Assembly: GCA_964399135.1 (NCBI GenBank)
Contig: CAYNPL010000006.1
Location: forward strand, 63,741 to 127,740
Length of the DNA: 64,000 bases
Direction of reading: 5' to 3'
Source of the DNA: an uncultured Gaiellales bacterium
GTDB taxonomy: Bacteria > Actinomycetota > Thermoleophilia > RBG-16-64-13
This document shows, piece after piece, positions 2,899-64,000 of the stretch. The position numbers were made by a program, and so were the translations under genes. Position 1 is the first letter of the stretch. The number at the start of each line of letters is the position of its first letter. Under the pieces are notes generated by a model, which was not told the DNA's origin, searched no databases, and worked only from the letters and a program-made list of their open reading frames with translations.

Positions 2899-3403
2899 GT
2901 GAGATATCGCGTCGGAGCAGATGTCGGGGGGACGTTCACCGATCTGGTGGCCATGGATGAATCGGGCAGGGTCACTGTGGCCAAGGCCCCCGCTACTCCG
3001 GCCGACCAGTCCTACGGGATGCTCGACGCCGTTGCGAAGGCGGGCATCGACCCCTCCTCTGTGGAGTCTTCTCCCACGGCACCACCGTGGGGGTCAACGC
3101 CGTCATCGAGAACAAGGGCGCCCGAGTGGCCGTTATCATCACCGAGGGCTTTCGCGACGCGCTCGAGTTGCGCCGGGGCCAGCGGAGGCAGGCAGCTCGC
3201 TGGACCACATCGTGAAGACCACCATCTACCTTAAGGACGTGAGGGACTACCAACTGATGCGGGATACCGAGTGGGAGTACTGGCAGCAACACGCCCCCGG
3301 GCTCATCGAGGAACCGCCGGCCAGCACCTTCGTGATGCCGGCTTCACTCGCCCGGTCCAGTATGCTGGTGGAGATCGACGTCGTCGCCTGCCTGAAGGAC
3401 TGA
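2899..3403 (+). pseudogene. Chimeric remnant: frameshifted 5' part of a hydantoinase/oxoprolinase A gene joined to the 3' part of a RidA-family gene
   Basis: Frame 1 reads RVGADVGGTFTDLV (2899-3066). After a one-base loss at about 3067 it reads FSHGTTVGVNAVIENKGARVAVIITEGFRDALELRRGQR (3069-3185). A third frame then reads EAGSSLDHIVKTTIYLKD...PPASTFV...LVEIDVVA* (3185-3403). Confidence 0.8.
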
Positions 3404-3454: not shown

Positions 3455-4315
3455 ATGAGCATGAAGCTGTACATCCTCGACTGCGGGCAGATGTGGGTGG
3501 AACGCGGGTTCCTGTGGCACTTCGGTGACGCCGCCCTCACCGATTGTGAGTATCAGGAGGGGCCGTTCGGCATCCGCAACATCCAGTTCTTCATCGACCA
3601 TCCCAAAGCCAAGGTGGTCTTCGACCTGGGATTCACCAGCGAGCTGTTCGATAGGCTGGTGGGGTTCCCCCATCGCAAGGGACCGCACGGCTTCCACCTG
3701 CTCAAGACCCCGGAACAGAACCCCATCTCCCAGCTGGCCCAGATCGGGGTCAAGCCCGACGACATCGATTACGTCATCATCTCGCATCTCATGAGCGAGC
3801 ATGCCGGCTACCTGCCGGAGTTCGCGGGAAAGAAGGCCAAGATCGTGGTGCAGCAAGCCGAGATGGAGTACGCGAGCCGCATCGGGACGCCGCCCCGCCC
3901 GGGTGACGAGCCCGCGGTTGAGCAGTTCCACACCTGGATGTACGTGCGCGAATACTTCGAGAAATCCGGCCTCGATTACTTGTTCATCGACGGGGACTAC
4001 GAGCTGCTGGGCAAGGACGTGGAGATCCTGAGCCTGCCTGGGCATACGCCCGGCTTCCAGAACGTCATGGTGCGGCTGCCCAAGACCGGCCCCGTGTTCC
4101 TGTCGGCCTGTGAGCACCGGGGCATGTACTACGACATCCCCGTGAACGGCTACGCTCCCGGCATACCCCACGCCTTCACCTGGTCGGCGGCGGGCGAGCT
4201 GTGGAGTTTCAAGCGCGTGCGCGACCTGGTGGAGAAGGAGGAGGGCCAGATCTTCTTCGGTCACGACCAGCAGCAGTTCGAGACCCTCAAAGCCTGTCCG
4301 GAGTACTACGAGTAG
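3455..4315 (+). CDS. N-acyl-homoserine-lactonase-like metallo-beta-lactamase-fold hydrolase
   Basis: KLYILDCG, VVFDLG, IISHLMSEHAG (HxHxDH position), LPGHTPG, IFFGHD. Confidence 0.85.
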   Translation: MSMKLYILDCGQMWVERGFLWHFGDAALTDCEYQEGPFGIRNIQFFIDHPKAKVVFDLGFTSELFDRLVGFPHRKGPHGFHLLKTPEQNPISQLAQIGVKPDDIDYVIISHLMSEHAGYLPEFAGKKAKIVVQQAEMEYASRIGTPPRPGDEPAVEQFHTWMYVREYFEKSGLDYLFIDGDYELLGKDVEILSLPGHTPGFQNVMVRLPKTGPVFLSACEHRGMYYDIPVNGYAPGIPHAFTWSAAGELWSFKRVRDLVEKEEGQIFFGHDQQQFETLKACPEYYE

Positions 4316-47147: not shown

Positions 47148-47295
47148 CCACGCCCTTTCGTGTCGGTGGCGCCGGGTGGCGCCCTTCCCCACGAGGGCGC
47201 GAAACCTCCGCCTTAGGATACTACGACGGTTTGGCGACCGGGAGTCTGGGTACGTCTGGAGCAACGCAGTGCGAGCCGGTCAGGAGGTCTCGGCC

Positions 47296-48102
47296 GTGAA
47301 GATGATCTGGAAAGGCGCCGTCTCCTTCGGTCTCATCACCATCCCCGTGCGTCTCTATCCCGCCGTCCAGGAGAAGACCGTCGCCTTCCATCAACTCCAC
47401 GACCGGGACGGTGGCCGTATCTTCTACACCCGGACCTGCTCCTTGTGTGGGGAAGAGGTCCCCTACGACCACGTCGTCCGCGGTTATGAATACGAAAAAG
47501 GACGGTACGTCGCTCTGAGCGACCAGGACCTGCTCGCGGTACGGGCCCGCTCCTCTCGTACCATCGACCTTATCCAGTTCGTCGACCTGGCCTCCGTCGA
47601 CCCCGTCTACTTCCAGAAGCCCTACTACCTGGAGCCGGAGGAAGTGGGCCTGAAGGCGTACCAGTTGCTGCGGCAGGCCATGGAGGCGGCCGGCAAGGTG
47701 GCGGTGGGCAAGCTGGCGCTCCACGCCAAGGAGCACCTGGTGAGCATCCGTCCCTACCGAGAGCTGCTCGTGCTCGAGACCATGAACTGGCCCGACGAGA
47801 TCAGAGAGGCCGGTTTCCCCGTCCTGGCCCAAGAGCCCGGGGTGCGGCCACAGGAGCTGGTGATGGCCAAGACTCTGGTGGAGAGCCTCTCGGCCGAGTG
47901 GCGACCGGAGGACCTCCGCGACGAGTACCGGGACGCTCTCCTCACGCTCATCGCTGAGAAGGTGGCCGGACTGCCGGTGGAGGTGGAGGAGGAGCCGGCG
48001 CCGGCCGCAGGCCGGCCCGGCGAGGTGGTCGATTTCATGGCCGCTCTGCAGGCCAGCATCGCTGCGGCCAAAGCGCGGACTGCGGGCGGCGGCGCGGGCT
48101 GA
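47296..48102 (+). CDS. ku: Prokaryotic Ku (NHEJ DNA end-binding protein)
   Basis: IWKGAVSFGLITIPVRLY, VRGYEYEKG.YV, PYYL.P, D.YR..L..LI..K, VVDFMAAL.ASI; GTG start with AGGAGG RBS. Confidence 0.95.
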   Translation: MKMIWKGAVSFGLITIPVRLYPAVQEKTVAFHQLHDRDGGRIFYTRTCSLCGEEVPYDHVVRGYEYEKGRYVALSDQDLLAVRARSSRTIDLIQFVDLASVDPVYFQKPYYLEPEEVGLKAYQLLRQAMEAAGKVAVGKLALHAKEHLVSIRPYRELLVLETMNWPDEIREAGFPVLAQEPGVRPQELVMAKTLVESLSAEWRPEDLRDEYRDALLTLIAEKVAGLPVEVEEEPAPAAGRPGEVVDFMAALQASIAAAKARTAGGGAG

Positions 48103-49711: not shown

Positions 49712-50986
49712 TCAGGCCGGGCCCGCGGCCCCCGGTGACCGCCCGCCCTGGCCGAGGACCTCCTGGAGCTCCATGCCCTGAGGCCGCTCCAGCTGATCCA
49801 TGGTGCACTGGCGGGGATCCTTGTCGGGCCGCCAGCGCTCGAAACGGGTGGCATGGCGGAAGCGGTCTCCGGTGAGCTGGTCGTAGCTCACTTCGATGAC
49901 GAGAAGCGGCGCCACAGGGACGAAGTCCTCGCCCGGTCCCGCCCCCTTCGCGGGGAGGCCCGCGTCCGCGCTGGCGCGGACGCGGGCCCCGCTCCACCGA
50001 CTGGGGGCGCCCGGGTGGCGCGCGTGTTCACCGAAACCGGCGGGTGGGCCCAGGCCGGCAGCCTCCGACCCCGGGCGGAGCGACTGGAGGGCCTCCAATA
50101 GGGCGGCCGCCTCCCGGTCGGAGAACGAGGAGCAGTGGCCGATGAAGTGAAGCTCGCCGCTGGAGTCGTACAGGCCCAGCAGGAGAGAGCCCACCCGACG
50201 GCCATCCTTGTGCAGCCGGTAGCCGCCCACCACGCAGTCCACCGTGCGCCGATGCTTGACCTTGACCATCTCGCGCCGGCCCTCGGCGTAGGGCCTGTCC
50301 AGAGCTTTCGCCACGATGCCGTCAAAGCCGGCGGGTTCGAAATCCCGGAACCAACGGCGGGCCGTCTCCAAATCAGTGGTGGCGGGGGAAAGCAGCCAGG
50401 GACCGGCCGTGGTCGGCCCGGGGACCACTGCGGCCTGCACCGCGGAGCGGGTGTCCGCCGGACCGGTGAGCCTCACTCCGGTGGGATCCGTGCCGGCGGC
50501 GTCCAGCATCGCGGCCAGTCGTTCAAGGGCGGCGCGGCGCTCGCTGAAGGGTCGGTCGCGCAGGTCGCTGCCCTCCAGCGCCAAGAGATCGAACAACACG
50601 AGCGAAGCCGGGGTCTCGCGGGCGAGGCGGGCAACCCGGCTCGCGGCGGGATGGACGCGGTTCTGTAGAGCGTCGAAGTCAAGCCTTCCCGCGGTGGCGA
50701 CGACCACCTCGCCGTCGACGACGGTGCCGGGGGGGAGTTGGGCCAGCGCCGGCCTGAGTTCAGGGAAGTAGCGCAGCAACGGCCTGCCGTTGCGGCTGTC
50801 CAGGCGGGGACCGGCGGATGCGGACGCGTCCGCCGCAGGGCTCCACATGACCACCCGGAAGCCGTCCCACTTCGGCTCGTACGACCAGGCGGGTCCGGAG
50901 GGGAGTTCGTCCGCCACCCGGGCCTCCATGGGAGCGATGGGCGGGGTGAAGGGCCAGGCGGGCCCGGTGCCGGCGGGCGCGCTCAC
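49712..50986 (-). CDS. ligC: Stand-alone ATP-dependent DNA ligase (LigC-like)
   Basis: PPIAPMEA, YEPKWDGFR, YFPEL, VDGEVV, LFDLLA, DGIVAK, R.M.KVKH.RT.DCVVGG, RFRH..F.RWRPDK.P..C; GTG start overlaps the upstream TGA. Confidence 0.88.
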   Translation of the reverse strand: MSAPAGTGPAWPFTPPIAPMEARVADELPSGPAWSYEPKWDGFRVVMWSPAADASASAGPRLDSRNGRPLLRYFPELRPALAQLPPGTVVDGEVVVATAGRLDFDALQNRVHPAASRVARLARETPASLVLFDLLALEGSDLRDRPFSERRAALERLAAMLDAAGTDPTGVRLTGPADTRSAVQAAVVPGPTTAGPWLLSPATTDLETARRWFRDFEPAGFDGIVAKALDRPYAEGRREMVKVKHRRTVDCVVGGYRLHKDGRRVGSLLLGLYDSSGELHFIGHCSSFSDREAAALLEALQSLRPGSEAAGLGPPAGFGEHARHPGAPSRWSGARVRASADAGLPAKGAGPGEDFVPVAPLLVIEVSYDQLTGDRFRHATRFERWRPDKDPRQCTMDQLERPQGMELQEVLGQGGRSPGAAGPA

Positions 50987-53811: not shown

Positions 53812-54465
53812 ATGTCCATGAGTGACGGCGGCGAAAAACACATAGGCAGGCGCGCATTCCTGGGACTGGTCGTCGCCGGGGTAGCCGCCCTCCTGCTGGG
53901 CAAAGAGGTGGTGCCACGCCTGCCCTCCAGCGGAGGCGCTTCCGAGGGCACCGCCGGCTTCCGCATCAACACAGTGGCGCCCGGCGCCGCCTTCGATCCG
54001 GCCACCTGGCGGCTGACCGTGGACGGCTTGGTCCGCCGGCCTCTCGAGCTCACATTCGACCAGTTCAAAGACCTGCCCCAGGTCACCTTCACTCGGGACT
54101 TCGTGTGTGTCGAAGGCTGGGGCGTCGAGGACGTGGAGTGGAAGGGGGTCTCGACCAGGGAGATCATGAGGCAGGCCGACATCGACCCGCGGGCCACCCA
54201 TCTGGTGTTCGAATCGAGCGACGGCGTGTACACCGATTCGCTCACCCTGGAAGAGGCCATGCGCCCTGACAGCATGCTGGCATACCAGGTGAACGGGGAG
54301 TTCCTGCCCGCCAAGATGGGCCAGCCTCTTCGCCTCATCCTTCCGGGGAGTTACGCCTACAAGAACGTCAAGTGGGTGATCAGGGTCGAGGCCATCGCGG
54401 CCGGGCCGGAAGGCTACCAGGGCTATTGGGAGCAACGTGGCTACCCGGCCGACGCCACCATCTGA
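53812..54465 (+). CDS. Sulfite-oxidase/MsrP-like molybdopterin oxidoreductase (Moco domain only)
   Basis: RRAFL signal, WRLTVDGLV, DFVCVEGW (Mo-Cys), GQPLRL.LP..YAYKNVKW, GYWEQRGY. Confidence 0.88.
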   Translation: MSMSDGGEKHIGRRAFLGLVVAGVAALLLGKEVVPRLPSSGGASEGTAGFRINTVAPGAAFDPATWRLTVDGLVRRPLELTFDQFKDLPQVTFTRDFVCVEGWGVEDVEWKGVSTREIMRQADIDPRATHLVFESSDGVYTDSLTLEEAMRPDSMLAYQVNGEFLPAKMGQPLRLILPGSYAYKNVKWVIRVEAIAAGPEGYQGYWEQRGYPADATI

Positions 54466-55294
54466 GGTTGCGGCCTCCGGCACGGGCGCGCCGCCGCCGG
54501 CCGGCGGCGGCGCGTACCAGGCCCCGTCCGGCTCCGTCCCTCCCGAGGGGCGTGGAGGTTTGCTGCAACGGTTCGTTTTGGCCGAGCGGTTGGCCCACTG
54601 GCTATATGCCCTGTTCTTCCTCGTCGCGTTCGTCAGTGGGGTGCTGATGTGGCTGCCGGCCACCCGGGAGTGGATGGGGGGGACGCGCTTCACCGTCTCC
54701 CGCTACCATGCCGCCATCGGCCTGGCCATGGTCTTGGTCCCCCTGCTGGTCATGGTCGTGCTCGACCGCCGGCGCCTGCGGGCCGACCTCCGCGAAGTGG
54801 ACCTGTGGGACGGCGACGACCGCCGCTGGTTCGGCCTGGCTCTGCGCGGCTACACGCTGCGCGGACGGGCGATGCCGGCTCAGGGCCGGCTGAACGCCGG
54901 ACAGAAGGCCAATGTCGTTCTGGTGGCGGCCATGGCCGTGGGCTTCGCGGTCACCGGGGGCATCCTCATGCACAAGGACGGCCTGCCCGCCTGGCTGGTG
55001 TCCCGGGCTCTGTGGTTGCACGGGTTCCTGGCCATCGCCTCCGTCGCCCTCTTTCTCGGCCATCTGGCCCACGTGTTCTTGACCAAGCATGGGCGCGTGT
55101 ACCTGGGCGCGATGGTCAGGGGCACCCTCCCCGAGGGACTGGCCCGGGAGCGTCACCGCCGCTGGTGGGAAGAGATGACCGCGGCGCGGCGGCAAGAGGC
55201 CGGTCCACCGGCCGGGGCTGCCGCCACCGGCCTGCCCCTGCCCTCCGGGCAGACTGAGAGCGCCCCACACCCCGACCGGGACGCCCAGGTGTAG
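54437..55294 (+). CDS. Di-heme cytochrome b (FdnI-like) membrane subunit; start uncertain
   Basis: ERLAHW, RYH, NAGQK, WLH...GHLAH heme-ligand pattern. Confidence 0.85.
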   Translation: MATRPTPPSEVAASGTGAPPPAGGGAYQAPSGSVPPEGRGGLLQRFVLAERLAHWLYALFFLVAFVSGVLMWLPATREWMGGTRFTVSRYHAAIGLAMVLVPLLVMVVLDRRRLRADLREVDLWDGDDRRWFGLALRGYTLRGRAMPAQGRLNAGQKANVVLVAAMAVGFAVTGGILMHKDGLPAWLVSRALWLHGFLAIASVALFLGHLAHVFLTKHGRVYLGAMVRGTLPEGLARERHRRWWEEMTAARRQEAGPPAGAAATGLPLPSGQTESAPHPDRDAQV

Positions 55295-55349
55295 TAAGCT
55301 ACTGATTCTCTGTGATCGGCTGACAGACCAACAAGAAGGGATGTTCCCC

Positions 55350-55820
55350 ATGCAGGCCACTCGCGGCGCCATCGTCTCCCTCAACTACACCCTCAAGGAC
55401 GACGAGGGCGTGACCATCGATTCCAACGAGGGACGTCCCCCCCTCGTCTATCTCCACGGATACGACAACCTCATCTCCGGTCTGGAAGCAGCCTTGGAGG
55501 GCACCTCCGCCGGCTACCGCTCCACGGTGGTCGTCGAGCCCGCCGACGCGTACGGGGAGTTCGACAAAGAGGCGGTCTTCGAGGTCCCTTTGAGCGAGTT
55601 CCCGGAGGGCATGCCCCTGGCGCCCGGCCTCCAGCTGGCGGCCGAGACACCTGGCGGGGACATCTCGGTGGTGGTGGTCGAGGTGGGCGAAGAGGCGGTG
55701 TTGCTCGACGCCAACCATCCCCTGGCCGGCAAACGGCTGCACTTCGACATCGAGGTGGTCGACGTGCGGGCGGCGTCCGCGGAAGAACTGGAGATGGGAT
55801 ACCCGGAGTGTGGCGTATAG
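55350..55820 (+). CDS. slyD: SlyD-like FKBP peptidyl-prolyl isomerase lacking the His-rich tail
   Basis: VSLNYTL, PLVYLHG..NLISGLE.AL, P.DAYG, DANHPLAGKRLHFDIEV.DVR.A..EEL. Confidence 0.88.
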   Translation: MQATRGAIVSLNYTLKDDEGVTIDSNEGRPPLVYLHGYDNLISGLEAALEGTSAGYRSTVVVEPADAYGEFDKEAVFEVPLSEFPEGMPLAPGLQLAAETPGGDISVVVVEVGEEAVLLDANHPLAGKRLHFDIEVVDVRAASAEELEMGYPECGV

Positions 55821-55882
55821 TAGGCGGAGGGCTGTCCGGCCCGGTGGCCGCCGGGTACGACGAGGAGCGGAGACCTTAGTCC

Positions 55883-56353
55883 ATGGCGATCGTTCACACC
55901 TCGCGCATAACCATCGTTCGGGAGAACGGGCCCACCCGCAAGGCCACCATCGAGGGCTTCGCCGAACCCATCTACTACGGTGTCCATGGGGGGATCAAGA
56001 AGTTCTACAAGGTCGATCCCGAGGTCGAGCACGCGGCCACCCTCGACCACATCGTGGGTGCGGTGGGCGGCTGAATGATGGGCACACTGGCCACGGCGCT
56101 GGCCGGCAGGAAGATCCCCACTCACACCGACCGCTATCAAGCCTGTGTCGAGGGGGACGTCGAAGACGTCGACGGGGTATTGCGCATAACCCGCATCCGG
56201 GTGGACTACACGCTCAAGGTACCCCGGGGCAAGACCGAGGAGGCTCGCGACGTGTTCGCCGGCTATCTGAAGGGCTGCCCGGCGGCCATGAGTGTCATCG
56301 GCTGCATCGAGATCAGCGACAGCCTGGAGATCACCGAGCTGGACGATCGCTGA
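55883..56353 (+). CDS. OsmC-like protein with an in-frame TGA at codon 64; probable selenoprotein (156 aa)
   Basis: ORFs 55883..56074 and 56075..56353 are in one frame joined by TGA 56072-56074 in DHIVGAVGG-U-MMGTL, the OsmC catalytic Cys position; second Cys in KGCPAAMSV; hairpin just downstream. Confidence 0.8.
56087..56106 (+). promoter_or_regulatory. Candidate bacterial SECIS hairpin
   Basis: CTGGCCA-CGGCGC-TGGCCGG: 7-bp stem with one G-U pair and a G-containing loop, starting 13 nt after the TGA. Confidence 0.55.
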
Positions 56354-56363
56354 GAGGGAGACG

Positions 56364-57965
56364 ATGACGCGGTCACGTTGGTCCTTGCCCGCCGTGACGG
56401 TAATGCTGGCATGTGCTCTGGCCGCCGTTCTGTCGGTGACGGCCGCCTGTGGCGGCACCCAGACCTCCCTGAACCGGGTCGTTCTCGACAGTGGGCCTAT
56501 CTTGGGGGTGCAGGAGGCGGGCATATGGGTGTTCAAGGGCATCCCCTACGCTGCGCCACCCGTGGGTGACCTGCGCTGGCGGCCGCCCCAGCCGGTGACC
56601 CCTTGGCAGGATGTGCGGCAGTGTGTCGAGCCCGGTCCTTCCTGCCCCCAGCCCGCGGCGGGCGGGGTGTTCTACCTCGACGTGGGCGAAACGGACGAGG
56701 ATTGCCTGTACCTGAACGTATGGTCTCCGGCCGAGTCGAGCGCAGAGCGGCTCCCCGTCATGGTCTGGATCCACGGGGGCAGTTTCGTCACCGGCTCAGG
56801 TTCGATGGCGGTGTATGACGGCGCCAACCTGGCGGCCGAAGGGGTGGTGGTGGTCACCATTAACTACCGGCTGGGGCCGCTGGGGTTCCTCGCCCATCCG
56901 GCTCTCGCGGCGGAGTCGGCCGAAGGGACATCGGGTGACTACGGGTTGCTCGACCAGATCGCCGCCCTGCGCTGGGTGCAGAGGAACATCGCCGCCTTCG
57001 GAGGCGACCCGGGGCGGGTGACGGTCTTCGGAGAGTCCGCCGGGGCCATCAGTATCCTGGACCTGTTGGTGAGCCCCCTCGCCGAAGGGCTTTTCCAGCG
57101 CGCCATCGCCCAGAGCGGCATTCTCCTCGACACGGGCTTCGGGGTGTCGACGGCTGCCGCCAAGGCCCAGGCCGAGGCGGCCGGGGAAGAGTTCGTCAAG
57201 AGGCTCGGCGTCGACCCCTCTGGCGACGCGCTCGCCCAGATGCGGGCTCTGAGCGCGGCGGAACTGCTGGCGGCAGGAGGCTCCGGAGAAGATCTCATGG
57301 ACCAGGGTCTCACCTGGAAACCGGTGGCCGACGGTTACGTGCTATCGGATCTTCCCACCGACCTATGGCTCGCGGGCAGGCAGGCGAAGGTGCCCCTGCT
57401 GATCGGGTCCAACGCCGACGAAGGCAACGCCTTCCTGGCCGGCCTGACCGGGTCAACAGACGAATTCCGGCTGCAGATGGGGAGGATCTTCGGCCCCTAC
57501 GTGGACGAGGCGTTAGCGCTCTATCCGGTCGCGAGCCCGGCCGACATCACCCCGGCCTTCAGCCGCATGCTGACCGAGGTAGGGTTCGCTTCCACCGCCC
57601 GTTTCGCGGCCGCCGCCATGAGCGCGGTCGCGCCGGCCTACCTCTACCAGTTCACGCGGGTCCCTCTGGGGAATCCCCTGGGCGCGTTCCACGGGGTTGA
57701 GATCCCCTACGTGTTCGGCAACGCCGGCCTGTTCACGGCCCTCGGCGATATACAGCAGGCCGACTACGACCTGTCCGGGGCCATGATGGGCTACTGGGTC
57801 CGCTTTGCCGCCACCGGCGACCCCAACGGCGACGGTGCCGTGCCCTGGCCCGAATATGACAGCACCACCGACCGGCATCTGGAGCTGGGCGACACCATCG
57901 GCACCAAGGCAGGTCTGTACAAAGAGGCCTGCGACCTGGCCGACCGTATGCGCAAGGGGGAGTAG
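56364..57965 (+). CDS. Type-B carboxylesterase/lipase family lipoprotein
   Basis: FKGIPYAAPPVGDLRWRPP, EDCLYLNVW, WIHGGSF, GESAGA, FHGVEIPYVFG; lipobox TAACG. Confidence 0.93.
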   Translation: MTRSRWSLPAVTVMLACALAAVLSVTAACGGTQTSLNRVVLDSGPILGVQEAGIWVFKGIPYAAPPVGDLRWRPPQPVTPWQDVRQCVEPGPSCPQPAAGGVFYLDVGETDEDCLYLNVWSPAESSAERLPVMVWIHGGSFVTGSGSMAVYDGANLAAEGVVVVTINYRLGPLGFLAHPALAAESAEGTSGDYGLLDQIAALRWVQRNIAAFGGDPGRVTVFGESAGAISILDLLVSPLAEGLFQRAIAQSGILLDTGFGVSTAAAKAQAEAAGEEFVKRLGVDPSGDALAQMRALSAAELLAAGGSGEDLMDQGLTWKPVADGYVLSDLPTDLWLAGRQAKVPLLIGSNADEGNAFLAGLTGSTDEFRLQMGRIFGPYVDEALALYPVASPADITPAFSRMLTEVGFASTARFAAAAMSAVAPAYLYQFTRVPLGNPLGAFHGVEIPYVFGNAGLFTALGDIQQADYDLSGAMMGYWVRFAATGDPNGDGAVPWPEYDSTTDRHLELGDTIGTKAGLYKEACDLADRMRKGE

Positions 57966-60523: not shown

Positions 60524-61030
60524 CTACGATCCCGCCGCCAGCCGGGCCGCCGCCTTCTTCTCCACCTCTTGGGTCAACGTGTTGGGATCACCCTGCTTGA
60601 GCGCCTTGGTGGGGCAGGCCCGCACGCAGGCCGGTTCGAGGCCGGCCTCCAGCCGGACGGCGCACAGGTCGCATTTCTGCATGCGCCCGTCTTTGCCGAA
60701 GCGGGGCACCCCGAAGGGGCAGGCGATGGAGCAGCTGTGGCAGCCGATGCAGAGATCGGCGGTGACGACGACGGCGCGGGTGCCGGTATCCCGGGCGATG
60801 GCCCCGGTGGGACAGGCCATGATGCAAGGAGCGTCCTCACAGTGCATGCAGGCGAGGGACACGTAGCGCAGCCGGGCCTCCGGGCCTGAGCCGGTCTCGA
60901 TGGTGAACACCTGGCGCCAGGCGGTGGGTTCGGGGCCGCTCACCTCCAGGTCGTTCTGGTCCATGCAGGCCACGGCGCACGTGAAGCACCCGGTGCAGCG
61001 GTCGAGGTCCAAGTAGAAGGCGTGGCTCAT
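60524..61030 (-). CDS. 4x[4Fe-4S] ferredoxin subunit (DmsB-like)
   Basis: DLDRCTGCFTCAVAC, CMHCEDAPCIMACPTGA, CIGCHSCSIACPFG, KCDLC, PACVRACP. Confidence 0.93.
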   Translation of the reverse strand: MSHAFYLDLDRCTGCFTCAVACMDQNDLEVSGPEPTAWRQVFTIETGSGPEARLRYVSLACMHCEDAPCIMACPTGAIARDTGTRAVVVTADLCIGCHSCSIACPFGVPRFGKDGRMQKCDLCAVRLEAGLEPACVRACPTKALKQGDPNTLTQEVEKKAAARLAAGS

Positions 61031-63264
61031 CGCGTCACCTCCTGCGCTCCGGCGGTCCCAGGCGCGATCTTCTTGACGGCGCACAGCGAGGCCTTGAAGC
61101 CGGGGAAACCGGAGATGGGGTCAAGGTAGTCACCGGACAGCAGGGTGTTGACGTCGGCCTCGGGATAGTCGTGGAACATGTGGGCCACGCCCACGCCGGC
61201 CAACTCGGTGATGTTGGCCTTGACCTGAATGGCGCCATAGGGGGTGGACAGCTCGACCAGGTCACCCTGGGCGATGCCGTACTTGCCGGCGTCGATCGGG
61301 TTGAGGTCGACCATGGCCTCGCGGCGGAGGCTGCGGGTCCAGGGCAGCCGGAACGTCCGGGAATGGATGAACATGGGCAGGCGGGTGCCGGTGCCCAACA
61401 CCAGGGGGAATCCCGCGGCCACGTCGGGCGTCGACAGCGGGCTGAGCTTGGGCTCGTTGTAGACCGGCAGACCGTCGATGCCCTCTCGGTCAGCGTGCTT
61501 CTCGGTGATGGAGGAGACGAACTCCATCTTGCCGCTCGGGGTGGCGAAACCGTTTTTCTCGTACTTCTTGAAGGTGATGGGGATCGGGTTCGGCACCGGC
61601 ATCCCGGCAGGATGCTCCCTGATCTGGGCCACGGTCATGCCGCTGGGCGCGAGGATCCAGTCCAGAGCCGCGTCGAAAGCGTCGCCGAAATCGGGAGCGC
61701 CGTTGGGCAGGAACCCGCCCAGATCGGCCGGGGGGGTCGCCCCGCCGGCCGCGGCCCCATCGTAGTCCTGGTAAGGCAGTCCCAGCTTCTGGGCCAGGCC
61801 GAAGACAATGTCGGTGTCGGAACGGGATTCACCGATGGGTTCGATGACCGGTTTCGTGGCGATGACGTACTTCTGCGGGTATGCCCGCACCTCGCTCCGC
61901 TCCACCGAGCTGCAGGCCGGCAGCACGATGTCGGCGTACTTGGCGGTATCGGTGGCGAAGAGGTCGGTGATGCAGATGAAGTCGAGCTTCTGCACGGCTG
62001 CGAGCCAATCCTTCGAACCGGGGAACATCCGGTAGTTGACGCCGAAGCCCAGGAAACCCCGCAGCGGGTAGGGATCGCCGCTGTTGATGTGCCGGGGAAG
62101 GTCCATGGCCTGGCCCTGATCGATCATCTCGGTCCATACCGGGAAACGTGCGGCTCCCACCCGGGGAGGCAGGTCGCTCCAGGGGCGCGGCATCTTGAAG
62201 GCGTGGTCGCGGGAGGGGAAGCCGCCTCCGGGGACCTCGAGCCAGGCCAAGGGCTGGACCACGTTGCCGCCGGGGACGTCGAAGTTGCCGGTAAGCCCCA
62301 CCAACATGGCCGCCGCCCGCTGGTTCTGCACCCCGTTGGTGTGATGGACGACCGGGGTGGAGCTGGGCATCATGGCGGCCGGCTTGGTGGTGGCGTAGAG
62401 CACCGCCGCTTCCCGGATAAGGGCGGCGGGCACGCCGGTGATCTCCTCCGCCCGCTCCAGGGTGAAGGTGGAGGCGTACGCCCGGTACTTGTCGAACCCA
62501 CGGGTCCATTCGGAGACGAACTCCCGGTCGTAGAGCCCCTCGGAGATGATGACGTTGGCCATGGCCAGCGCGAGGGCGCCGTCGGTACCGGGGCGGAGCT
62601 TCAGGTGCAGGTCGGCCAGGGCGGCGATGGGGGAGTTGCGGGGATCGACGACGATGAACTTGACCCCCCGCTCCTTCGCGTCCATGAGCTTGCGGGCGTT
62701 GGGGGTCCCGGCCCACAAGGGGTTGCCCGTCCACACGAAGAGCAACTTGGTGTGGGCCAGGTCGGGACCCGCCATCGCTCCGTAGACCAGCCGCCAAGCC
62801 ATAGCCATGGCCGTGAAGCAGGTGCTCGACTCGGTGCAGTAGTTGGGGGACCCGAAGAGGAAGGCCAGGCGCTGGACGAACGGCCTCATCTGCTTGGGAT
62901 ACCCGCAGTAGAAGACCACCGACTCGGGGCCGCTTTCGGCCTTGAGGCGCTGCAGGTTCTCGGTGACGGTGTCGAGGGCCTCGCTCCAGGAGATGGACAC
63001 CATCTCACCGGAGCCGCGGGGGCCCACCCGCTTGAGGGGCGTGCGGAGTCTTTCCTCGTGGTATATCCACTGGCGCTGAGCGGCTCCCTTGGCGCAGAGG
63101 GTGCCGCCGCTGTGCGGGTTCTCCAGTGTTCCCTCCACCTTGATGATGCGGCCGTCTCTGACATAGCAGTCGAGGCCGCACTGTGTCTGCGGGTCGCAGA
63201 TCGTGCAGATCGACTTGCGGACCTCGATCCCGGTGGCTTCGCCCGGGATCTTGCCCTTGCTCAT
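61027..63264 (-). CDS. Mo/W-bisPGD (DMSO-reductase superfamily) catalytic subunit without a Tat signal
   Basis: CTICDPQTQCGL..H..TLCAKG, ERLRTPLKR, SWSEAL, TESSTCF, VVDPR, PGTDGALA, ADIVLPA; ATG 63264 overlaps the upstream stop. Confidence 0.92.
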   Translation of the reverse strand: MSKGKIPGEATGIEVRKSICTICDPQTQCGLDCYVRDGRIIKVEGTLENPHSGGTLCAKGAAQRQWIYHEERLRTPLKRVGPRGSGEMVSISWSEALDTVTENLQRLKAESGPESVVFYCGYPKQMRPFVQRLAFLFGSPNYCTESSTCFTAMAMAWRLVYGAMAGPDLAHTKLLFVWTGNPLWAGTPNARKLMDAKERGVKFIVVDPRNSPIAALADLHLKLRPGTDGALALAMANVIISEGLYDREFVSEWTRGFDKYRAYASTFTLERAEEITGVPAALIREAAVLYATTKPAAMMPSSTPVVHHTNGVQNQRAAAMLVGLTGNFDVPGGNVVQPLAWLEVPGGGFPSRDHAFKMPRPWSDLPPRVGAARFPVWTEMIDQGQAMDLPRHINSGDPYPLRGFLGFGVNYRMFPGSKDWLAAVQKLDFICITDLFATDTAKYADIVLPACSSVERSEVRAYPQKYVIATKPVIEPIGESRSDTDIVFGLAQKLGLPYQDYDGAAAGGATPPADLGGFLPNGAPDFGDAFDAALDWILAPSGMTVAQIREHPAGMPVPNPIPITFKKYEKNGFATPSGKMEFVSSITEKHADREGIDGLPVYNEPKLSPLSTPDVAAGFPLVLGTGTRLPMFIHSRTFRLPWTRSLRREAMVDLNPIDAGKYGIAQGDLVELSTPYGAIQVKANITELAGVGVAHMFHDYPEADVNTLLSGDYLDPISGFPGFKASLCAVKKIAPGTAGAQEVTR

Positions 63265-64000
63265 CCGTTGAAGCTTGTCCACGTCGCCTCCGTCTCGTTC
63301 GTCGCGCCTATCGCGGCTTTCAGCAGGGCCTGCTTGGTGACCCCGGCCGACAGGCAGCAGTCAAGCAGATTGACCCCGGCCAGCCGCCCGTCGAGCCAGA
63401 CGCGGAACTGGTGAGAGTCGCCTTCGCTGCATACGACCATCGTGTCGTACTCGTTCACACAGCCCACGGCGGCGAACAGCATGCGGCCGACGTGGGTGAT
63501 GTTGTGCGGCACTCCGCCTCGGTAGACCGAGGGGGCGCCGGCGAGACTGCGTCCCGCGGCCCGCCCTTGGTAGCGGGCGCTCGACCACAGACCGATTATC
63601 TCATGCCGTCCCGACAGCAGGTTCTTGCCCTGGGCCACGTCGCCGGCCGCGTAAAGGGTGGGCAGACTCGAACGCATCTGTTCGTCCACCAGGATGCCGT
63701 TGCCGGTGGCCACCTGCCCGGGGCGGAGGAACGACAGCGCCGGACGCGTGCCCGTGCAGACCACCACCAGGTCGACGACCTCCTGGGTGGATGACTCATC
63801 GCAGGCGGTGCCGCCGGCCCCTCCGGGGTCGGCGGCACCGGGCAGCGCGCCGAAGTCCAGGCGTACACCGGGCCGGCCGGCCTCGGTGACGGCGTCTGTG
63901 ATCACCCCGGTGAGAGCCGCGCCCAGGCGCAACTCGTAGCCCTCCCCCAAGAGGTGGTCTTCCATGATGCGGGCGCAGTCCGGGTGCGCCGCCAGGGGAA
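63261..64000 (-). CDS. FAD/NAD(P)-dependent pyridine nucleotide-disulfide oxidoreductase (NirB/rubredoxin-reductase-like), 5' end outside the window
   Basis: VVVCTGTRP, GILVDEQMRSS.P.LYAAGDVA, W..A..QGR.AG. Confidence 0.85.
   Translation of the reverse strand, partial: PLAAHPDCARIMEDHLLGEGYELRLGAALTGVITDAVTEAGRPGVRLDFGALPGAADPGGAGGTACDESSTQEVVDLVVVCTGTRPALSFLRPGQVATGNGILVDEQMRSSLPTLYAAGDVAQGKNLLSGRHEIIGLWSSARYQGRAAGRSLAGAPSVYRGGVPHNITHVGRMLFAAVGCVNEYDTMVVCSEGDSHQFRVWLDGRLAGVNLLDCCLSAGVTKQALLKAAIGATNETEATWTSFNG

Follow-up and report, generated by a model that had tools for sequence, protein, structure and literature searches.

Selenoproteins of the OsmC-like kind have been known since the Sargasso Sea survey of 2005, in which Zhang, Fomenko and Gladyshev reported three sequences belonging to COG1765 and carrying a UxxT motif (PMC1088965). 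The GOS counts of 2008 listed five OsmC-like proteins with selenocysteine (Sec) against 161 with cysteine (PMC2398784), and the group is still present in reviews of 2022 and 2026 (PMC9312934, PMC13188914). The published model of the bacterial SECIS element comprises a stem of 4-16 bp and a loop of 3-9 nt with a G within its first two positions, typically of the form N1-G-[G/U]-N-N2. The loop lies 16-37 nt from the UGA, and the minimum free energy (MFE) of the fold does not exceed -7.5 kcal/mol (PMC13188914). The Sec trait itself occurs in Actinobacteria (PMC5029168 Table 2; PMC13449736).

Here we discuss an interrupted gene found in an uncultured Actinomycetota genome, within a stretch of 64 kb with a G+C content of 67% that was analysed as a whole and is called the window below. 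We conclude that positions 55883-56353 very likely form one gene for a 156-residue selenoprotein of the OsmC/Ohr fold, in which UGA is read as selenocysteine at the catalytic site. The original prediction for this locus, made from the letters of the window, had related it to OsmC-like selenoproteins predicted from metagenomes and had called these little characterised. The first part agrees with the literature (PMC1088965, PMC2398784); the novelty was put too high, as the family is an established one (PMC13188914), although the present clade is a distant one.

A single reading frame across an in-frame TGA

The open reading frame (ORF) track of the window shows an ORF of 63 amino acids (55883..56074) that terminates at the TGA 56072-56074, and another of 92 amino acids (56075..56353) that begins on the very next base with the frame unchanged. 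These coordinates agree with the original prediction, which had described two contiguous halves in the same frame. In translation, the junction between the two ORFs reads HIVGAVGG-[TGA]-MMGTLATALAG, and the peptide around residue 64 of the joined product would be GAVGG-U-MMGTLATALAGR. The features of the proposed gene are as follows.

55862..55872, + strand: Shine-Dalgarno-like purine tract GAGGAG..GGAG, 10 nt 5' of ATG 55883, read from the sequence
55883..56353, + strand: predicted OsmC/Ohr-family selenoprotein gene of 156 codons, with ATG at 55883, Sec codon 64 and terminal TGA at 56351-56353
56072..56074, + strand: in-frame TGA, predicted Sec residue 64, at the peroxidatic Cys column; the TGA is conserved and Cys forms have TGC or TGT
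56276..56278, + strand: codon TGC of Cys132 in K-G-C132-P133 (C-P motif), presumed resolving cysteine; Cys in 81/81 relatives

The purine tract upstream of the gene is made of GAGGAG (55862-55867) and GGAG (55869-55872) and constitutes a better Shine-Dalgarno (SD) sequence for ATG 55883 than does GGTGGG for ATG 56075. The latter is a weak SD-like sequence lying 8-13 nt 5' of this ATG; its presence means that the downstream ATG codons, said in the original prediction to have no SD, are not strictly devoid of one.

Family assignment, fold and active site

When Cys is substituted for Sec, the joined product scores 29.9 bits against the Pfam OsmC model PF02566, whose gathering score is 27.5. This match is marginal; the precomputed Pfam matches of most full-length homologues agree with OsmC. 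No NCBIfam model covers the clade, and the OsmC model of that collection gave 12 bits for a cut-off of 85.8. The AF2 model of the protein has a pLDDT of 81 and a pTM of 0.76, and the top 50 PDB matches returned by Foldseek for this model are all OsmC/Ohr proteins, with E values of ~1e-6 and TM scores of 0.45-0.60. Residues 64 and 132 each coincide with a break in a helix of this model.

The alignment of the family profile with Ohr 6d9n is weak (E = 0.035) and spans residues 60-146; it places the Sec column at the ACF Cys of Ohr and Cys132-Pro133 at its CP motif. In Ohr, the former Cys is the peroxidatic and the latter the resolving cysteine. The assignment of the TGA to the peroxidatic Cys column of OsmC/Ohr proteins, proposed at the outset, is thus corroborated by the alignment of the Sec position to the Ohr ACF Cys as well as to the selenocysteine of the Sargasso protein AACY01145085, and the partner Cys claimed to be retained is present in C132-P133, encoded by TGC 56276-56278.

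The residues R19 and E49 are invariant or nearly so and are at best tentative counterparts of the catalytic Arg and Glu of Ohr: their spacing to Sec64 is unlike that in Ohr, and the alignment to 6d9n spans residues 60-146. The clade also has invariant residues of its own, namely H35 in YYGVHGG, D55-H56 in LDHI, E49, E90, E94 and Y128, and a different substrate would therefore be possible. A bolder reading can be built for the whole clade, whose carriers are bacteria of soil, sediment and groundwater with at least 572 genomes at the species level. It would be a separate, Sec-dominated OsmC branch whose invariant residues form an active site other than that of Ohr/OsmC, with a substrate or chemistry near-obligate for selenium, instead of a routine Sec thiol peroxidase. 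We regard this proposal as unlikely.

Conservation of the TGA among relatives

A search with the joined protein retrieved 444 relatives, of which ~16 are full-length and more than 100 are exactly 92 amino acids long, the length of the piece located 3' of the TGA. The full-length relatives carry either Cys or 'W' at the Sec column. Among the 120 best protein matches, ~10 are Cys forms, the others being TGA-split or 'W' forms. Two of the 'W' proteins, P0002 and P0003 (L081 833-1303 and L082 578-1048), have TGA in their DNA and were translated by a gene caller using an alternative code. Because their DNA reads TGA, the full-length 'W' proteins are gene-call artefacts, and artefacts of this kind conceal selenoproteins in protein databases.

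Scanning species-representative genomes, one genome per species, yielded at least 572 stretches encoding the protein, of which the best 80 loci were analysed. All of these best 80 of at least 572 loci have TGA at codon 64 and a protein conserved on either side of it; the internal codon is TGA in 81/81 sequences. The terminal stop of the same loci, which serves as an internal control, is distributed over TGA (34), TAG (29) and TAA (17). According to the record titles, the best 80 loci span at least six phyla: Actinomycetota, Acidobacteriota, many delta-proteobacterial lineages, Nitrospirota, Methylomirabilota and Gemmatimonadota. The Actinomycetota among them include Gaiellales and Thermoleophilia, and Acidobacteriota/Thermoanaerobaculia are also named in these titles.

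The Cys-form homologues (n=8) use TGC or TGT at codon 64, as verified in their DNA. In an exhaustive library clustered at 50% identity, the best 150 clusters comprise 41 that end exactly before the Sec column, 29 that start exactly after it and 48 that span it; Cys occupies this column in 28 of the 37 spanning representative clusters examined. Within the Actinomycetota clade, at dS values of ~0.5-2, dN/dS amounts to 0.03-0.19 for the N-terminal half (residues 3-63) and to 0.09-0.32 for the C-terminal half (residues 81-153). Translation and strong purifying selection thus extend over both halves.

The exact 92-residue product of the window was found on 8 independently assembled contigs originating from several samples. 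TGA is present in all four places that were read among these contigs, two of which are sequence variants of the gene of the window. The original prediction had called for an alignment of homologues at codon 64, expecting Cys or TGA, and had counted TGC or TGT in the reads as an outcome against it. The homologues do carry Cys (TGC/TGT) or TGA at this codon, and the independent assemblies have TGA instead of TGC/TGT.

A group of distant full-length relatives (P0165, P0172, P0176, P0179, P0180, P0226, P0263 and P0202) carry Ala, Asp, Ser or Gly in place of the catalytic residue, and the C-P cysteine is missing as well from part of them. These proteins are possibly non-redox members of the family or, for those with Gly, the product of another code artefact.

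A SECIS-type hairpin downstream of the TGA

The sequence following the TGA can fold into a stem-loop, to which an outer helix may be added.

56087..56106, + strand: putative SECIS upper stem-loop, with 5' arm CUGGCCA (56087-56093), loop CGGCGC (56094-56099) and 3' arm UGGCCGG (56100-56106); agrees with the bSECIS criteria and has frozen synonymous sites
56079..56120, + strand: possible outer SECIS helix pairing 56079-56084 with 56115-56120; weak evidence, partly formed in the window

The stem of the upper hairpin counts 7 bp, one of them a G-U pair, and its first base is the 13th nucleotide past the UGA. The loop counts 6 nt and is located 19 nt from the UGA, with a G at position 2 followed by another G, and the MFE is -10.4 kcal/mol. 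These values agree with all four published bSECIS criteria, the loop bases C-G-G-C-G fitting N1-G-[G/U]-N-N2. A 7-bp hairpin with a G-containing loop beginning 13 nt after the UGA, and a geometry compatible with bacterial SECIS elements, had both been announced from the sequence of the window; the coordinates 56087-56106 confirm the former, and the published criteria together with the frozen synonymous sites described below bear out the latter.

Among the UGA-form sequences, 80/81 fold within the energy cut-off, and the loop pattern is present in 77/81. Only 2/8 Cys forms pass the same cut-off (Fisher p = 3e-7), the other six having lost the hairpin. The Leu-Ala...Leu-Ala coding of this region (CTG GCC, with its self-complementary GGCC) favours a hairpin, which accounts for two Cys forms that still fold. 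These are the TGC forms L094 501-980 and L095 501-962, with energies of -11.1 and -8.7 kcal/mol, and their hairpins may be relic SECIS elements from recent Sec-to-Cys switches.

Taken alone, the window folds no better than shuffled sequences (z = 0.24). Since one sequence by itself carries no significance, a comparison across relatives was needed, resting on the TGA in 81/81 sequences and on frozen synonymous sites. The same hairpin recurs in the same register across the relatives, with 98.2% of the cells of the upper helix paired over 70 distinct sequences. Compensatory covariation is almost absent from these 70 sequences; covariation is little informative here because the upper helix is nearly invariant, and the suppression of synonymous variation was relied on instead. 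Codon entropy, computed for residues with four- and six-fold degeneracy, is 0.35 bits for codons 68-74 versus 1.64 bits for the rest of the gene (Mann-Whitney p = 4e-9). Leu69 is encoded by CTG in 78/81 sequences, Ala70 by GCC in 79/81 and Thr68 by ACA in 72/81, whereas outside the element CTG accounts for 37% of Leu codons, GCC for 41% of Ala codons and ACA for 9% of Thr codons. The codons of the hairpin are moreover unchanged in 16 low-GC genomes (GC3 0.36-0.60). Codon bias was considered as a cause of the hairpin and was rejected on account of the usage elsewhere in the gene and of these low-GC genomes. As judged from such sequence comparisons, selection acts on the hairpin as RNA.

The codon of Thr68 (56084-56086) supplies the unpaired bases situated just 5' of the SECIS stem, and its preference for ACA (72/81 versus 9% elsewhere) suggests a sequence-specific constraint beyond base pairing. 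The consensus of the element is very uniform in the clade and can be written ACA-CUGGCCA-CGGYGC-UGGCCRG. For the possible outer helix, 88.3% of the cells are paired, and in the window GGC/ATC leaves a C-C mismatch. One of its pairs changes between GC, AU and UA at two synonymous third positions, a covariation that may only track genomic GC content. A search of the hairpin against Rfam at a relaxed threshold matched no family, and a scan for promoters and terminators gave nothing useful.

Selenocysteine machinery, other candidate sites and gene neighbourhood

The Sec machinery was sought in the window and 86 loci with ARAGORN, with Rfam and by tblastn with E. coli SelA, SelB and SelD. None of selA, selB, selD and tRNA-Sec was found in the 64 kb of the window or in ~1.3 Mb of sequence flanking the relatives, a result that is uninformative for a sample of this kind. 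The 3' part of a tRNA truncated by the window edge is visible at positions 1-60; it is of ordinary length and does not correspond to tRNA-Sec. Two GC3-based scans detected no second selenoprotein in the window. Their sole other candidate, the TGA at 3401-3403, is coding-like on both sides and was discarded as the ordinary stop of a RidA-like gene; a gene of the MBL fold (metallo-beta-lactamase) starts in frame at 3455.

Directly 5' of the selenoprotein gene are found genes for an MsrP-like molybdopterin oxidoreductase (53812-54465), a cytochrome of the b561 type (~54560-55294) and a SlyD-like FKBP (55341-55820). On its 3' side, a carboxylesterase gene (56364-57965) starts 10 nt past the selenoprotein stop and encodes a lipoprotein-like signal (…VTAACGG); gene callers differ on its start, placed at 56364 or at 56403. 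The order MsrP-like, cytochrome b, FKBP and esterase is syntenic only in ~13 Actinomycetota relatives. No neighbour recurs across phyla, and no dedicated partner gene is conserved beside the selenoprotein gene. Elsewhere in the window, a Ku gene (47176-48102, + strand) and an ATP-dependent DNA ligase gene (49712-50929, - strand) form a non-homologous end-joining pair. Another molybdopterin oxidoreductase is encoded at 61030-63282, and its tblastn matches in several long-read MAGs (L001, L004 and L006) are split into adjacent pieces, the splits being probably indel errors.

Alternative explanations

The locus could be taken for a truly split gene, the TGA being a real stop and the products of 63 and 92 residues being made through TGA-ATG translational coupling before they assemble. 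The two ATG codons placed directly after the stop, the weak GGTGGG tract upstream of them and the fact that gene callers everywhere report two ORFs would all suit this scheme. The break, however, falls exactly on the catalytic Cys and would remove it, and the internal stop is TGA in every one of the 81 sequences, yet the terminal stop uses all three codons. The Met-Met pair is also present in the contiguous Cys forms, which makes it a feature of the protein and not a start signal, and the split gene leaves aside the RNA-level selection acting on a SECIS-type hairpin. We hold such an arrangement to be extremely unlikely. The UGA might otherwise be read through without selenium, for instance by near-cognate Trp or Cys, in a lineage lacking or having lost the Sec machinery. 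The absence of this machinery from the window and from the ~1.3 Mb flanking the relatives goes in this direction, but the hairpin, which fits the model of SelB-bound SECIS elements, is kept as strictly in the Actinomycetota relatives as in the selenoprotein-rich delta-proteobacterial lineages, and the lineages that gave up Sec have TGC or TGT and a hairpin that has mostly decayed. The Sec trait being on record for Actinobacteria, readthrough of this kind appears very unlikely.

The idea of a pseudogene, or of a TGC/TGT codon misread in sequencing or assembly, has nothing in its favour but the stop itself. Against it stand the 92-residue product carried by 8 independent contigs with TGA in the four places read, the TGA of 80 other species and dN/dS values of 0.03-0.32 taken over both sides; independent contigs with TGA and with sequence variants rule out error or pseudogene for all practical purposes, and the probability left to this explanation is negligible. 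We give just as little credence to the idea that TGA is reassigned to Trp or Gly throughout the genome (code 4 or 25). It would agree with the W present at the Sec column in some public gene calls, but these W residues are artefacts of the chosen code, the phyla concerned have the standard code, and TGA terminates many Pfam-supported genes of the window, including the present one at 56351-56353.

Proposed mechanism and significance

The interpretation as a single selenoprotein gene makes it very probable that UGA is decoded as selenocysteine in this uncultured Actinomycetota lineage of high GC content. SelB carrying Sec-tRNA(Sec) would bind the hairpin when the ribosome arrives at the UGA and would insert selenocysteine, after which translation would run on into the C-terminal part of 92 residues. 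By analogy with what is known of the family, Sec64 would reduce a hydroperoxide and be converted to a selenenic acid, which Cys132 would attack to form an intramolecular selenenylsulfide. A thiol or dithiol donor could then recycle the enzyme; with Ohr/OsmC, this donor is a lipoylated protein or thioredoxin.

Public annotation nearly always presents this widespread clade as a 63-residue orphan accompanied by a 92-residue fragment labelled 'hypothetical' or 'OsmC/OhrA', or as a Trp artefact. With a curated model and the uniform SECIS element, the annotation of hundreds of genomes could be corrected. The clade also offers a clean natural set of Sec/Cys pairs in which the contribution of selenium to an active site of the OsmC/Ohr type could be studied. 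The finding leaves the knowledge of recoding unchanged and will not surprise the specialist.

Comparison with known systems

The two-Cys hydroperoxide reductases Ohr and OsmC (PDB 6d9n, 1qwi, 1n2f and 6ebg) share the predicted fold of the window protein and have equivalents of both catalytic columns. They differ from it by a Cys in place of the predicted Sec and by a sequence similarity that is marginal (E = 0.035). The hairpin resembles the bacterial SECIS elements summarised in the consensus of Zhang and Gladyshev (PMC13188914 Fig. 2), whose prototype is E. coli fdhF, in that it likewise lies in the coding sequence directly 3' of the UGA. As for the curated RNA families of Rfam, it has no resemblance to them in primary sequence.

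The OsmC-like selenoproteins of the Sargasso and GOS data belong to the same Pfam family (PF02566); their Sec occupies the homologous column, their second Cys corresponds in position to Cys132 further downstream, and the SECIS elements of the Sargasso proteins are similar to that of the window, with a spacer of 12-13 nt, a 7-bp stem, a small loop containing G and an outer helix. The sequences are nevertheless far apart. The Sargasso protein used for comparison (AACY01145085, taken from the supplement) is only ~25% identical to the window protein over 81-102 residues. The published clade is of the COG1765/YhfA type with a UxxT motif (GF-U-LLT), whereas the window protein has UMMGT, with its Thr at +4 instead of +3; with this motif and 25% identity, it falls outside that clade. 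The invariant motifs YYGVHGG and LDHI are the window clade's own. In the published clade, Sec forms are rare beside Cys forms, while in that of the window most close relatives, considered over the 120 best matches, are predicted Sec forms. On sequence grounds, the window protein is of the same kind as the published OsmC-like selenoproteins, with its predicted Sec at the same site, but it belongs to a different and distant clade.
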